From a virus, in IMG/VR virus record IMGVR_UViG_3300045971_000528, positions 32,001-96,000 of that record: DNA of 64,000 nucleotides. One strand, written 5' to 3'. The notes under the pieces are model-generated. The model ran no database searches. It was not told the origin of the DNA and worked only from the letters and a program-made list of their open reading frames with translations. The position numbers were made by a program, and so were the translations under genes. Positions 47,226-54,437 of the stretch are shown here, in pieces. Every line of letters starts with the position of its first letter. The stretch's first letter is position 1.

Positions 47226-47495
47226 AGCTGATCCGTAGCATGGATCAGCTATTTACGGACAACCAGTGTCAGCCGAAGATCTTGGTGATGACTGCTTCAG
47301 GCACCTGCCAGAGCAGGGTGTCCTGTTCCGTAGTGAGCGACTCAGAGATGGAGATGCCACGGACGATGTCGGTGACAATCTCGAGAGCCTCTTCTTTGAG
47401 GAGATGCGTAGAGACCGATTGATCTTCCAGCCGAAGCTGGAGATTCCGTGATAGATCTGGCGGCAGGCGTCGAAAGATCTCTACGATGTCCATGT

Positions 47496-51057: not shown

Positions 51058-51446
51058 GATTGTGCCCCAGTGATACGGTGGTATTCAGCGATGATCGCGG
51101 CCTTCCGAGCTTCTTCAGCGCGGGCAGCTTCTTGACGTTCGGCTTCTTCCTTGTCGGCAACGAACTGCTTCGCAGCAGCGATCGGGTCTTCGGCGTTCAT
51201 CACGCTCAGCGGGATCCGATGTTCGCCGTCCATAGCGCAGCATCGAACTTCGTACGCTGTCTCGATCACGAACTCGTCGCCGTCCTCGTACGTGCGAGTG
51301 ATTCGGTCGTGCCCGATCTGGCCTTCACCGAGGGCTTCGAGAATCTTGTCGAGCTCGATAGCGAACTCGTACGATGCCTGCGCCTTGCGGGCCTTGGCAT
51401 GGCTGATCTCAGATTCGAGATCGCTGAGTGTGTCGCGGAGGCTCAT
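51054..51446 (-). CDS. hypothetical protein with coiled-coil tail
   Basis: ATGA-coupled operon. Confidence 0.7.
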   Translation of the reverse strand: MSLRDTLSDLESEISHAKARKAQASYEFAIELDKILEALGEGQIGHDRITRTYEDGDEFVIETAYEVRCCAMDGEHRIPLSVMNAEDPIAAAKQFVADKEEAERQEAARAEEARKAAIIAEYHRITGAQS

Positions 51447-51901
51447 GATTGTCCTCCCATGGCGGCGAGCTTCTTGTTCAGCTCTGCCTGTTGGCGGAGC
51501 AGCGCAGCACGGGTCTGTTCGAGTTCCTTCTGTGCCGCCTGGATCTTGCGGGCCTCGATCGTCTTCAGATGACGCTTGAAGAAGTCGAACTGCTTCTGCT
51601 TGAAGAGATCGTGCTGGCCGTCGAGCACCAGCGGGTCGAGTTGAAAGCTGCCGCTGATCTCGTCTTGACCACCCCAGTGACCGCGTTCCCAGCAGTTGAT
51701 CGAACCACCTTCACCCACCTCCATCCAATCCGTGTACTGGAGATAGCGATAGTTCGAGTCCATGCTGTGTGAAAAGCCGGCAGTGACCGAAGCTTCTCGC
51801 ATGAGTTGGAGTTGAGTCTCGGCGAAGCCGTGAAGCTTGCCCTCGAGTTCGCTGACTTGGTTCATGAGGTCAGCATGTTGTTGCAAAAGTGCGTGGCTCA
51901 T
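51443..51901 (-). CDS. hypothetical protein with coiled-coil tail
   Basis: MSHALL start overlapping the upstream TGA. Confidence 0.7.
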   Translation of the reverse strand: MSHALLQQHADLMNQVSELEGKLHGFAETQLQLMREASVTAGFSHSMDSNYRYLQYTDWMEVGEGGSINCWERGHWGGQDEISGSFQLDPLVLDGQHDLFKQKQFDFFKRHLKTIEARKIQAAQKELEQTRAALLRQQAELNKKLAAMGGQS

Positions 51902-52227
51902 TTGATGCTCCAAAGTGGGAGATGTGAAAGGAAGAACTTTTGATCGGCAGTGATCATGCACGAGATCGCAGTGAGACCCCAGTGTTGGTAGGGTTCATGG
52001 AACTCGGCAGTCTTGATGCCCTGTTCGTGCAGCGAATGACGCAGCAACTCGAGTGACTTGGTGTCACGAGCAGACAGGTGGATCAAAGACGGGTGATGGT
52101 CGTGAGGGCGACCGAACTGGAACGCGTATTCGAGAGCGGCGTGGCCGGCCTGAATAGCCTGGTGCGCGAGTGGGAGATCGCGGCGGGAGATCGTGTAGAG
52201 ATAGGACTTGCGGGAAACCTACATCAT
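51898..52227 (-). CDS. Pth2-like peptidyl-tRNA hydrolase with an in-frame TAG at codon 3
   Basis: GAGG RBS, then ATG ATG TAG GTT..., continuing YLYTISRRDLPLAHQAIQAGHAALE...EFHEP...GLTAI. Confidence 0.75.
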
Positions 52228-52313
52228 GATAGCCTCGTAGTGTGGTGACTTCGTTTACAGCGTGGTGAAGTCGATACCGGTTCAATGCTGCGGGACTCTT
52301 TGTTGACTGTTCT

Positions 52314-52342
52314 ATTCTACCATAGTCAACGCCGAATGTACA
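52314..52342 (-). promoter_or_regulatory. sigma70-like promoter of the pth-like operon
   Basis: TGTACA-N17-TAGAAT. Confidence 0.7.
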
Positions 52343-52624
52343 ACTATTTATGCGAATCCTTCAGGTCGACACCCAGCATTTTGGCAGCAACCTCGTCGAA
52401 AGACATCTCGAGGTCATGGTAGACGATGGTGCTACCATCTTTGCGTGCCTTTTCCGTGAAGAGGTTCATGACCATGTTCGACCGATGCTCGCGGCTCGGG
52501 TTCACGAGAGGACCCCAGAGCATCATGTCGCCGATCTTGGTGCCTTCAGCAGGCGGCCAGGTGGGCGTGATGCAGACGATGTCGTGTTCCTTGGCCACAG
52601 CCAGCATCTTGTCGAACAGGTTCT

Positions 52625-53113
52625 TCATGATCCGGTGCTCAACATGAGGGTGTCAGCCCGGCCCGGCTTCGGCTGGAAATCCTCGACGAAGATGTGGTGG
52701 GTGTCACCACTCGCGTCGATCGCACCGTCAGCAGCGATGTAGAGGTCCTTCCAGGTGGGGCCTTCCACGTCTGCCGTCACATGCACGGAGCTGGTGTGGT
52801 ACTGGAGCTTTGTGATCTTGCCGAACGGATGGTCAGCGAGCAGGTCTTCGACTTCATGCAGACTCCAGATCGCCTTGAGGTTGTGCTCGATCGCGACCTT
52901 GCCGGCACTGTCGATGCTCTTCTCGGCCATTGCATCGTCCTGCTCGTACGCGTTCTTCAGCCCCTTATTCAGGAGGTCGATCGCCTTCTGGAGACGGGCG
53001 GCCATCTTCGGATGCACGACGCCTTCCATCGACTGCAGAATGCCGTGCAGCTCGCACTTGGCATTGTGGACATCAGCGAACTCAGAAGGAGTCAGAGTGG
53101 GAGAGATGTTCAT
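52625..53113 (-). CDS. hypothetical protein
   Basis: 162-aa ORF with AAGGA RBS. Confidence 0.7.
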   Translation of the reverse strand: MNISPTLTPSEFADVHNAKCELHGILQSMEGVVHPKMAARLQKAIDLLNKGLKNAYEQDDAMAEKSIDSAGKVAIEHNLKAIWSLHEVEDLLADHPFGKITKLQYHTSSVHVTADVEGPTWKDLYIAADGAIDASGDTHHIFVEDFQPKPGRADTLMLSTGS

Positions 53114-53126
53114 GCCTGTCCTTGAT

Positions 53127-53201
53127 TGGTGCGCCCGGCGGGAATCGAACCCGCGCCAAAGGATTTAGAATCCCCTACTCTAACCGCTGAGCTACGAGCG
53201 C
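53127..53201 (-). tRNA. amber-suppressor tRNA (anticodon CTA)
   Basis: Canonical numbering gives GGGGA-TT CTA AA-TCCTT; CCA; own TG-G-TATAAT promoter. Confidence 0.8.
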
Positions 53202-53504
53202 GTATTTGGTGCATGTAGCCATTATACCATAAGCGCCGAATCCGGACAACAAGAAGTGTAACGTCAGAAGCTGATCTTCCCGGTGGCCCACATGACAGCA
53301 AGAGTCGGCACCAGAATGTGCTCGAAGATCTCGTACAGCGTCATGAACGTGAGAAGCACTGCAAAGAGCGGGTTGGTCTCAGCCTTCGTGGCGAGCCAAC
53401 GGAAGAAGCGAGCGTGTGTAGCAGCAATCTGCTGGGCAATTTTGACGATGAACATAAGAACCTCCAATGAGAATGATTCTTATTTACAGAGAACATCTAG
53501 CGGA

Positions 53505-53815
53505 AACAACAACGGACCCGAAGGTCCGTGTCGGATGACTCAGCGAACTGAGTCACCTACCGTTTGATGACAAGGACCGGGTGTCCTCGCAAAGCTTACG
53601 CCGCTAGGCGCAGTCCTTCGAAGTTAGCATCGTTTGCAGATACTTGGTTTTGCTTGATTTACGGTCATCGCCTACCGAGCGCAAGAAAAGTTACTAGTCT
53701 GTCGGTCGATTACCAGATCACCCCCATCAGAAGAACACCCGCAGATGCGCTTATGGTGGAGGTGGGGGGATTTGAACCCCCGTGTCGCCAGCATTTCTCA
53801 GTCCTCGTTTACGCT
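53505..53815 (-). ncRNA. ssrA: circularly permuted (two-piece) tmRNA, tag ANDANFEGLRLAA
   Basis: T arm plus CACCTCCACCA (ending 53754) precedes GGGGGTGA (starting 53725); G3.U70; tag ORF 53637-53596; terminator. Confidence 0.9.
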
Positions 53816-53816
53816 G

Positions 53817-54437
53817 TTATTGGAAGCCTGGGTTCAGGCGTCCCAATTTCAAATTCTTCGTCCTCTCGTCAGTGATGGCAAGCAGAAAATTGGTAGTTGA
53901 ATCATTATACCACCTTTTCCCGTACGTGCCATTCTTTTTGCACTTTTTGTTTTCGATCCATTCGCTTGACAAAATCCATCCAACAGGTTGATCACCACGA
54001 ACAAACCTCCTTCGGTCGCCATCAGCATCTCGATAGATGCTCGTACCAAATGCAGAATTTGTATCGCCTTGCTGGTGGTTGATCGATGCGTATGTGTTCT
54101 TCCGTTTAGCAACCGCTTCTGGTGTGGAAGCCTGGGCCGTGGCATATTCTTGGTTCTTCGTATTTAGTTTCCAATTAGCAGATGTCGGCTTTTTCCAGGG
54201 TTGATTTGCAGCGACTGCCTTATGACCACCTAGTCTTTGCAGCTCATGCACTAATTCTGACTTCGAGATAATTCCTGCCAAACCTTTCCAAGCCAACTTG
54301 TCCTCTACTCTACCGTGCGTTTCATAGAGCAGCCGGTGTGCTTCGGCGTGTTCAGCAACGGTGAGCAGTTCTATGTTGTCTGGAGAATCTGTTCCACCAG
54401 CATGTGTGGGAATTTTGTGATGACGATGTTTCAACAT
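53817..54437 (-). mobile_element. HNH homing endonuclease
   Basis: HHKIP...GG.D...N...LT..EH..AH; WYN tail; TATAAATA at 54442-54449; AT-richer than flanks. Confidence 0.85.

Follow-up and report, generated by a model that had tools for sequence, protein, structure and literature searches.

In stop-recoded phages 26-71% of the genes contain in-frame stop codons, and these are mostly late and lysis genes (Borges et al., bioRxiv 10.1101/2021.08.26.457843). Suppressor transfer RNAs (tRNAs) with the anticodon CUA have been reported for the phages XacN1 (PMC5852040) and RsoM2USA (PMC8504454). The authors of the XacN1 study could not identify a target for the suppressor (PMC5852040), and many genes were proposed as possible targets in RsoM2USA (PMC8504454) and Atu_ph07 (PMC6102473). 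It is also already known that jumbo phages encode PTH2, a peptidyl-tRNA hydrolase family (Iyer et al. 2021, PMC7824862). Here we analysed a 64,000-nucleotide stretch of viral DNA (the window), bases 32001-96000 of the 106,081-bp IMG/VR record IMGVR_UViG_3300045971_000528, in which the gene for a PTH2-fold protein has a TAG codon right behind its start and lies close to the gene for a CUA suppressor tRNA. CheckV puts the completeness of the record at 29%, and it is therefore a fragment of a jumbo phage.

From sequence comparison we infer that this stop is read through and that it belongs to a suppressor-tRNA-dependent translational gate on enzymes of the tRNA 3' end. We put the probability of this reading at about 0.78.

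An early stop codon in a PTH2-fold gene

The gene lies on the minus strand. A GAGG Shine-Dalgarno (SD) sequence at 52236-52233 is followed by a 5-nt spacer, ATG (52227-52225), a second ATG (52224-52222) and TAG (52221-52219), and 106 in-frame sense codons then lead to a TGA at 51900-51898. The earlier note, made from the letters of the window alone, had described the start in this way, and the sequence confirms it. It had also claimed that no alternative start precedes the conserved motifs. This holds as well, since the TAG is followed by no ATG, GTG or TTG until a TTG 44 codons on, beyond strand beta1 (model residues 8-15). The features on which the argument rests are:

52219..52236, minus strand: the gate, with SD GAGG, ATG ATG, TAG and G at +4 (sequence; layout common to 54 of 63 homologous starts)
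51898..52218, minus strand: body of the PTH2-fold protein, 106 codons and TGA (translation, AlphaFold, Foldseek and profile match)
53127..53201, minus strand: suppressor tRNA with anticodon CUA, encoded CCA, A73 and A36-A37-A38 (ARAGORN; Rfam tRNA 68.8 bits)

Because beta1 (pLDDT, predicted local distance difference test, 96) precedes any ATG, GTG or TTG in the AlphaFold model, the full fold as modelled cannot come from a downstream canonical start and would be made by readthrough only.

A word-index search found 43 homologs with an identity of 55-71%, and pattern scans gave 29 viral and 56 metagenome loci (L numbers below). After duplicate removal, the counts of gene starts rest on 63 distinct starts. 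We called a gate strict when a start, 0-6 further sense codons and a stop were followed by an open reading frame (ORF) without a canonical start. This is the case in 54 of the 63 starts, and the stop is TAG in 53 of them and TGA in one, so the TAG is neither a private mutation nor an error. A second TGA gate (L026) has a GTG after the TGA. The remaining starts include two fusion genes, two genes with an ATG a few codons past the TAG, and four with a plain ATG (L139, L143, L150 and L152), which form one small subclade. In nearly all loci the gated frame enters the conserved motif Y-L-Y-T-I-S-R-R-D with no canonical start ahead of it.

When GenBank phages were searched by tblastn, the gated gene was found in cultured jumbo phages at 31-38% protein identity. 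The gates of these phages and of one uncultured phage are:

Serratia phage BF (L068:2983-3318): ATG ACG CAC TAG, unannotated in GenBank
Ralstonia phage RsoM2USA (L069:3001-3366): ATG TTG TAG, unannotated in GenBank
Pectobacterium phage CBB (L071:2501-2836): ATG GCA CAA TAG, called in GenBank as CBB_406 from an internal start
Acinetobacter phage ME3 (L072:2480-2812): ATG ACT TAG, called in GenBank as ME3_195 from an internal start
Uncultured 595-kb phage LR756511: ATG ACT CAC TAG

It is because of the early TAG that GenBank misses these genes or calls them from internal starts, which is a systematic annotation gap in BF, RsoM2USA, CBB and ME3.

The protein tree has two deep and well-supported clades, one environmental and one cultured, and TAG gates occur in both. 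The frame downstream of the stop is intact, with 13 columns invariant across the clades. Since the early stop, 1-7 sense codons after the start, is held across this deep divergence, we conclude from the comparison that it is kept by selection. A purine directly follows the gate stop in all 54 cases (A 44, G 10). After the true TAG terminators of G001, a complete relative, we counted T 18, A 14, G 15 and C 15. A purine on the 3' side of a stop codon favours nonsense suppression.

Tandem PTH2-fold genes were observed in L023 (4320-4983; also in L024 and L025). The first is TAG-gated and the second is intact with a plain ATG. Only about 40 residues of the first L023 copy are recognisable before the likeness is lost, so that it looks like a decayed copy, and the pair looks like an instance of gate loss.

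Suppressor tRNAs and the standard code

In the 53 TAG-gated loci, a CUA tRNA lies within 5 kb of the gate in 38, a UCA tRNA in none, and no suppressor was found within this distance in 15, which are mostly short contigs. The tRNA(CUA), present as one or two genes, is on the same strand as the gate and usually upstream of it, in several loci less than 250 nt away. It is 420 nt upstream of the gate in ME3 and 4 kb from it in CBB. Both TGA-gated loci (L026 and L030) have only UCA suppressors as neighbours and no CUA. Stop type therefore agrees with the anticodon wherever a suppressor is present (TAG with CUA in 38/38, TGA with UCA in 2/2). This joint change of stop type and anticodon makes the suppressor tRNA next to the gate the likely reader of its stop, as the earlier note had supposed for the window. 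There, the CUA tRNA with a promoter of its own that it had placed 0.9 kb from the gated gene was recovered by ARAGORN and Rfam, upstream and on the same strand, and a promoter consensus match (53249-53221) lies directly upstream of the tRNA gene.

All suppressors examined carry A36-A37-A38. This is the determinant for modification by MiaA, which improves the reading of codons that start with U. Among the 56 tRNA genes that the 106-kb fragment encodes in addition to a transfer-messenger RNA (tmRNA), the suppressor has no clear parent isoacceptor, as the best identities (0.66-0.77) do not point to a single amino acid. Its BLAST matches are tRNA-Arg, tRNA-Lys and tRNA-Met. The 'Q' at the gate position in many database proteins at first suggested that glutamine is inserted, but where the DNA was recovered it proved to be a TAG that the gene caller had translated as Q (P0010 is the same as L104), so that it carries no information on the residue. 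In Atu_ph07, which has a UCA suppressor, we found no member of the gated PTH2-fold subfamily.

Many relatives have two suppressors with one anticodon and different acceptor stems (L004:3127-3294, L012:3882-4040, L015:2792-3265, L017:2175-2329 and L030:3724-3936). The discriminator is A73 in one and G73 in the other in most pairs, and A73 in both in L030. The differing discriminators and acceptor stems suggest that paired suppressors could insert two different amino acids at one stop.

The claim that there is no global recoding was borne out, as code 11 leaves the other genes intact. With this code, gene models based simply on codon usage were made for the 106-kb fragment, the complete genomes G001 and G002, and CBB as deposited:

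106-kb fragment: coverage 80%; terminators TGA 106, TAA 46, TAG 15 (167 genes)
G001 (358 kb, complete): coverage 88%; terminators TGA 254, TAA 184, TAG 62 (500 genes)
G002 (343 kb, complete): coverage 90%; terminators TGA 234, TAA 169, TAG 39 (442 genes)
CBB: coverage 88%; terminators TGA 109, TAA 429, TAG 22 (560 genes)

More than half of the genes of G002, the phage with opal suppressors (UCA), end in TGA (234/442). Reading on past TAG terminators gives only short extensions with non-coding scores, and there is no large share of genes with in-frame reassigned stops such as marks an alternatively coded phage (code 15 or code 4). A genome-wide scan of the 106-kb record for an SD, ATG, short stretch, stop and ORF returned the gated gene and two unsupported plus-strand matches (genome positions 9561 and 47451), of which the one at 47451 lies inside a 368-aa minus-strand ORF. 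The same scan of G001 and G002 returned two gene families only, the PTH2-fold family and an HD-type family. The gate pattern thus goes far beyond what chance would give. Apart from the gated genes, G001, G002, CBB and the 106-kb fragment use the standard code, as judged from these gene models. No other readthrough genes were found in the code-11 gene models, the gate scans or the comparisons of same-frame neighbours.

In CBB, the sole other match to the gate pattern is P0046 (L095:8297-8710; genome 308297-308710), where ATG CTA TAG opens a 134-codon frame right after a tRNA-Gly gene. An internal ATG 26 codons past the TAG could be the real start, and P0046 is doubtful as a gated gene. In G001 and G002 (L032-L067), same-frame neighbours split by one stop were also observed, and the stop is TAA in 26/34 and 39/48 of them, respectively. 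They are separate genes, as their homologs end at the junction, and probably reflect a TAA-n-ATG junction architecture and not recoding.

Predicted enzymes, leader hairpin and neighbouring genes

The AlphaFold model of the gated protein has a pLDDT of 91.4. Foldseek aligned it to the PTH2 structures 1q7s, 2zv3, 3erj, 1wn2, 1rlk and 1xty with template modelling (TM) scores of 0.70-0.80 and a probability of 1.0, and PTH2 enzymes (human Bit1, MJ0051, AF2095 and Sulfolobus Pth2) are its sole strong structural neighbours. When a profile built from both clades was compared with the PDB, PTH2 chains were the top matches (2zv3, E 0.018; 24bt, E 0.085; 1rzw, E 0.23), with values that indicate remote homology only. 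D17, Q26, H29, E33, E78 and T86 are invariant across the clades. We take the PTH2 active site to comprise the R-x-D-L...Q..HA motif, the G-K loop lysine and the D-A-G acidic residue. In the HMMER alignment to 2zv3, a 2-residue gap falls on the G-K-G-K loop and E-P stands opposite D-A-G. The Pfam PTH2 model (PF01981), a match to which the earlier note had named as a check, gave 12.9 bits (E 0.13) and missed the gathering cut-off of 23. The Pth2-like motifs described in that note are real, and its identification as Pth2 is upheld as regards the fold, but not as regards the Pfam threshold and the lysine loop. With this fold, the remote profile matches and the missed threshold, we class the protein, on the strength of its model, as a divergent member of the PTH2 superfamily whose peptidyl-tRNA hydrolase activity is only putative.

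The second gated family has about 190 aa and lies about 1 kb downstream of the PTH2-fold gene. It starts with ATG ACG TAG in most loci, with ATG AAA TCG TAG in RsoM2USA (L069:3921-4499) and with ATG ACA TGG TCG TGA in the opal-suppressor phage L030/G002. In BF, CBB and ME3 the HD gene is ungated and directly follows the gated PTH2-fold gene; in BF and CBB the gated gene ends in TAA and the HD ATG comes next, and in ME3 the HD ATG precedes the stop of the gated gene by about 10 nt. The 106-kb fragment contains no HD homolog. All 12 sequences of the protein that were compared have H30, H79-D80, H100 and D125 (motif H..HD..H..D), and Pfam HD matches one of these 12 (E 8e-4). By VIA-align, whose Z score is only moderately specific for helical proteins, the best structural match is residues 250-448 of 3wfo_A, the C-terminal half of a class II tRNA nucleotidyltransferase (Z 13.7, root-mean-square deviation 2.8 Å over 159 residues). 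Next, with Z 10.6, comes the HD part of bacterial GlyRS-beta, and generic HD phosphohydrolases score 7-9. The protein thus has both the HD fold and the metal-ligand motif of the HD metal-dependent phosphohydrolases, and structurally it lies nearest to domains that bind the tRNA acceptor.

Both domains were observed in a single protein in XacN1 (ORF364, L070:2446-3306) and Xoo-sp13 (Xoo-sp13_327, L073:1943-2809). Both fusion genes have a TAG 4-5 codons ahead of their annotated ATG and seem in truth to begin with an ATG AAG (AAG) TAG gate. The fusion argues that the PTH2-fold and HD proteins act together. The gated HD family, its fusion to the PTH2-fold domain and the gates of cultured phages are not mentioned in the earlier note. 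From the folds of the two it seems most likely that both act at the acceptor (CCA) end of tRNA. A small YqeY/GatB-like gene, annotated as 'glutamyl-tRNA amidotransferase', was also noticed two to four genes upstream of the Xanthomonas fusions.

The leader of the gated gene contains a further conserved element:

52247..52272, minus strand: 5'-leader hairpin with a 6-bp stem and a conserved 14-nt loop starting with ACCA (covariation)

The hairpin recurs in five related loci (L031:4932-4957, L142:2539-2564, L151:4935-4960, L029:4949-4974 and L121:4944-4969), and in these and in the window it always lies 17-20 nt 5' of the gate SD. Four different stems occur, all fully complementary, around the same 14-nt loop ACCACGCTGYAAAC. 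Every pair is formed in every locus, compensatory changes are seen in 4 of the 6 pairs, and the observed score was reached by 0 of 500 shuffles. The hairpin occurs once in the 106-kb record, and was not found in G001, G002 or CBB. The ACCA of the loop comes directly after a helix strand, resembling the acceptor end of tRNA, and the hairpin may be a candidate operator for tRNA-end enzymes. We also observed that a TAAATAG motif recurs about 25-35 nt 5' of the gated ATG in L019, L030, L116, L118, L120, L125 and others. It may be a phage promoter element.

The other features around the gated gene are:

51443..51901, minus strand: next gene, 152 aa from the ATG at 51901, ATGA overlap (sequence)
52314..52342, minus strand: promoter-like site 5' of the gated gene, TGTACA-17-TAGAAT with TG, 9/12 (consensus match only)
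52344..52628, minus strand: ORF of 94 aa, TAG-terminated (ORF list; code-11 gene model)
52625..53113, minus strand: ORF of 162 aa between the tRNA(CUA) and the gated gene (ORF list)
53221..53249, minus strand: sigma-70-like promoter match, TTGTCC-17-TATAAT with TG extension, 10/12 (consensus match only)
53533..53866, minus strand: two-piece (permuted) tmRNA of betaproteobacterial type (Rfam RF01850, 90.5 bits; RF04321, 90 bits)

The TGA of the gated gene is joined to the ATG of the next gene by ATGA (51901-51898), which agrees with the coupling described in the earlier note. The 152-aa product of this next gene has no Pfam or PHROG match, and the same is true of the 162-aa and 94-aa ORFs. ARAGORN places the permuted tmRNA at 53513-53846. 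The tmRNA that the note had counted in the module is a frequent neighbour, and about half of the related loci have one no more than 5 kb upstream. When the phage collection was searched with the region by megablast, no match was obtained.

Proposed mechanism and comparison with known systems

According to our proposal, ribosomes would start at the well-placed SD and ATG and, having read 1-7 sense codons, meet a stop at one of codons 2-8 (codon 3 here). The host release factor would terminate there unless the phage suppressor reads the stop, CUA for TAG and UCA for TGA, so the full-length PTH2-fold protein would be made only on readthrough. An HD-type enzyme would, in many relatives, be under the same kind of gate, which would thus govern two enzymes whose most likely site of action is the CCA end (3') of tRNA. 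The ATGA-coupled next gene probably depends on readthrough too. Since a single module, usually with tmRNA in it, supplies both the tRNA and its targets, the circuit would be a coherent feed-forward AND gate that requires both phage transcription and a functional phage tRNA. Its likeliest purpose would be to prevent premature or leaky synthesis and to tie output to a working supply of phage tRNA. The adjacent tmRNA may help to tolerate readthrough of terminators.

Several observations weigh against this proposal. Only two TGA loci enter into the co-variation of stop and anticodon, and given the poor resolution of the protein tree they may not be independent switches. L139, L143, L150 and L152 and the second copy of L023-25 all start with a plain ATG, which makes the gate dispensable. 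XacN1 and Xoo-sp13 have an ATG 4-5 codons past the TAG as a possible bypass. The phage family lacks the canonical loop lysine of PTH2, so its chemistry may differ. Moreover, a suppressor that opens the gate should also read phage terminators, that is TAG in 15 of 167 genes here and TGA in 234 of 442 in G002.

We weighed the proposal against four other explanations. The stop could be a trace of incipient or residual reassignment with no regulatory role, a nonsense codon that has persisted because it is harmless at a tolerant N-terminus. The residues around the gate are indeed variable, and in the model of Borges et al. a suppressor is acquired before in-frame stops accumulate. We consider this unlikely, since a neutral stop would vanish or shift, whereas in both deep clades the gate keeps its distance of 1-7 sense codons from the start, always has a purine at +4, and follows the anticodon when the anticodon changes. 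Also, exactly two functionally linked genes are gated, and none else in genomes of 340-380 kb. It is rather improbable, too, that the suppressor tRNA serves another purpose and that the stop is passed without it. Short nascent chains terminate poorly, and 15 of the 53 TAG-gated loci have no suppressor within 5 kb; those 15, however, are mostly the short contigs, the stop matches the anticodon at every locus that bears a suppressor, and the tRNA often lies less than 250 nt upstream on the same strand.

The start and early stop might instead form a regulatory upstream minigene, with the enzyme made by re-initiation at a non-canonical codon just past the stop and no suppression at all. ATT, ATC and ATA are rare but known start codons in bacteria, and one of them follows the stop in about a third of the cases. 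The other cases have AAC, AAT, ACA, ACC, GTT or GTC there, which are not initiators. Re-initiation would also leave unexplained why the stop is TAG in 53 of 54 gates, when TAG is a minor terminator in the four genomes examined, and why it switches to TGA exactly where the tRNA is UCA, and we regard it as quite improbable. A pseudogene, or a TAG created by assembly or sequencing error, is hardly credible. It is true that the TAG in the record is backed by a single contig, as one run (X1) contains an identical contig and is probably its source, while a second (X2) contains relatives with no contig crossing the TAG, and none of the runs listed for this stretch is recorded as RNA. It is also true that the gene is missing from the GenBank annotation, or shortened there, in BF, RsoM2USA, CBB and ME3. 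However, the same stop recurs in dozens of independent assemblies and in the finished genomes of cultured phages, the frame past it is intact and strongly conserved, and the true decayed copy, the first one in L023, looks different.

Returning to the suppressor-dependent gate, it probably explains the purpose of the puzzling suppressor tRNAs in these jumbo phages. A broader and more tentative possibility is that the orphan suppressor tRNAs of standard-code jumbo phages are dedicated regulators whose sole targets are one or two tRNA-3'-end enzymes, and that the hairpin mimics an acceptor end. As no host tRNA reads the stop, readthrough would report that the phage tRNAs are made, matured, charged and intact, and the tRNA-end enzymes would be released only once the phage tRNA supply works. 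These enzymes might serve in repair, in the clearing of blocked or peptidyl-tRNAs, or in an attack on host tRNAs, and the ACCA-loop hairpin may let them feed back on their own mRNA.

The bar minigenes of phage lambda consist of a strong SD and a 2-4-codon ORF with a stop, and release peptidyl-tRNA, the substrate of Pth. The gate resembles them in its strong SD, very short ORF and stop. The ideas in the earlier note that drop-off from the minigene provides the substrate, or that the gate opens when RF1 is impaired, are speculative. In contrast to bar, which is standalone and toxic only when Pth is limiting, the phage minigene is in frame and continuous with a PTH2-fold gene, and its stop follows the suppressor. 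Autoregulatory recoding of translation-factor genes is known from prfB, with a +1 frameshift at an in-frame UGA, and from infC, with its AUU start. As in these genes, a translation-related gene would be subject to a recoding signal near its start, and the efficiency of this signal would reflect the condition of the translation machinery. The product of prfB competes at the signal itself, whereas the reader of the phage gate would be a separate tRNA.

The gated subfamily differs from the PTH2 proteins of Iyer et al. in that its divergence keeps it below the Pfam threshold and that GenBank mostly omits or truncates it; in that survey (PMC7824862) 'suppressor' and 'stop codon' have 0 occurrences. 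A full-text literature search, together with the phage papers, turned up neither a report that these genes carry a single early stop nor one that names them as suppressor targets. The proposal gives the suppressors of XacN1 and RsoM2USA a concrete, testable target, and since several gated phages grow on laboratory hosts it can be tested directly. It also ties two uncharacterised enzyme families, the lysine-less PTH2-fold and the HD family, to each other and to the biology of the tRNA 3' end.

A synthetic feed-forward 'leak dampener' (PMC7969014) combines an early amber codon with a suppressor from the same unit into an AND gate against leak. Its logic, built independently by synthetic biologists, matches that of the phage gate. 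The dampener is engineered, while the gate would be a natural counterpart found across jumbo phages, in which suppression of leak would be the presumed function. With the recoded crAss-like and Lak phages, the gated phages share a phage suppressor tRNA that would read an in-frame stop in a standard-code host, an arrangement proposed there to act as a post-transcriptional timer. Unlike the recoded phages, which carry stops at many positions, they keep the standard code and have a single stop within the first eight codons of one or two genes, and the targets are predicted tRNA-end enzymes encoded beside the suppressor tRNA itself. The gate would thus be a natural single-codon translational AND gate that stands between the standard code and the broad recoding of gut phages.

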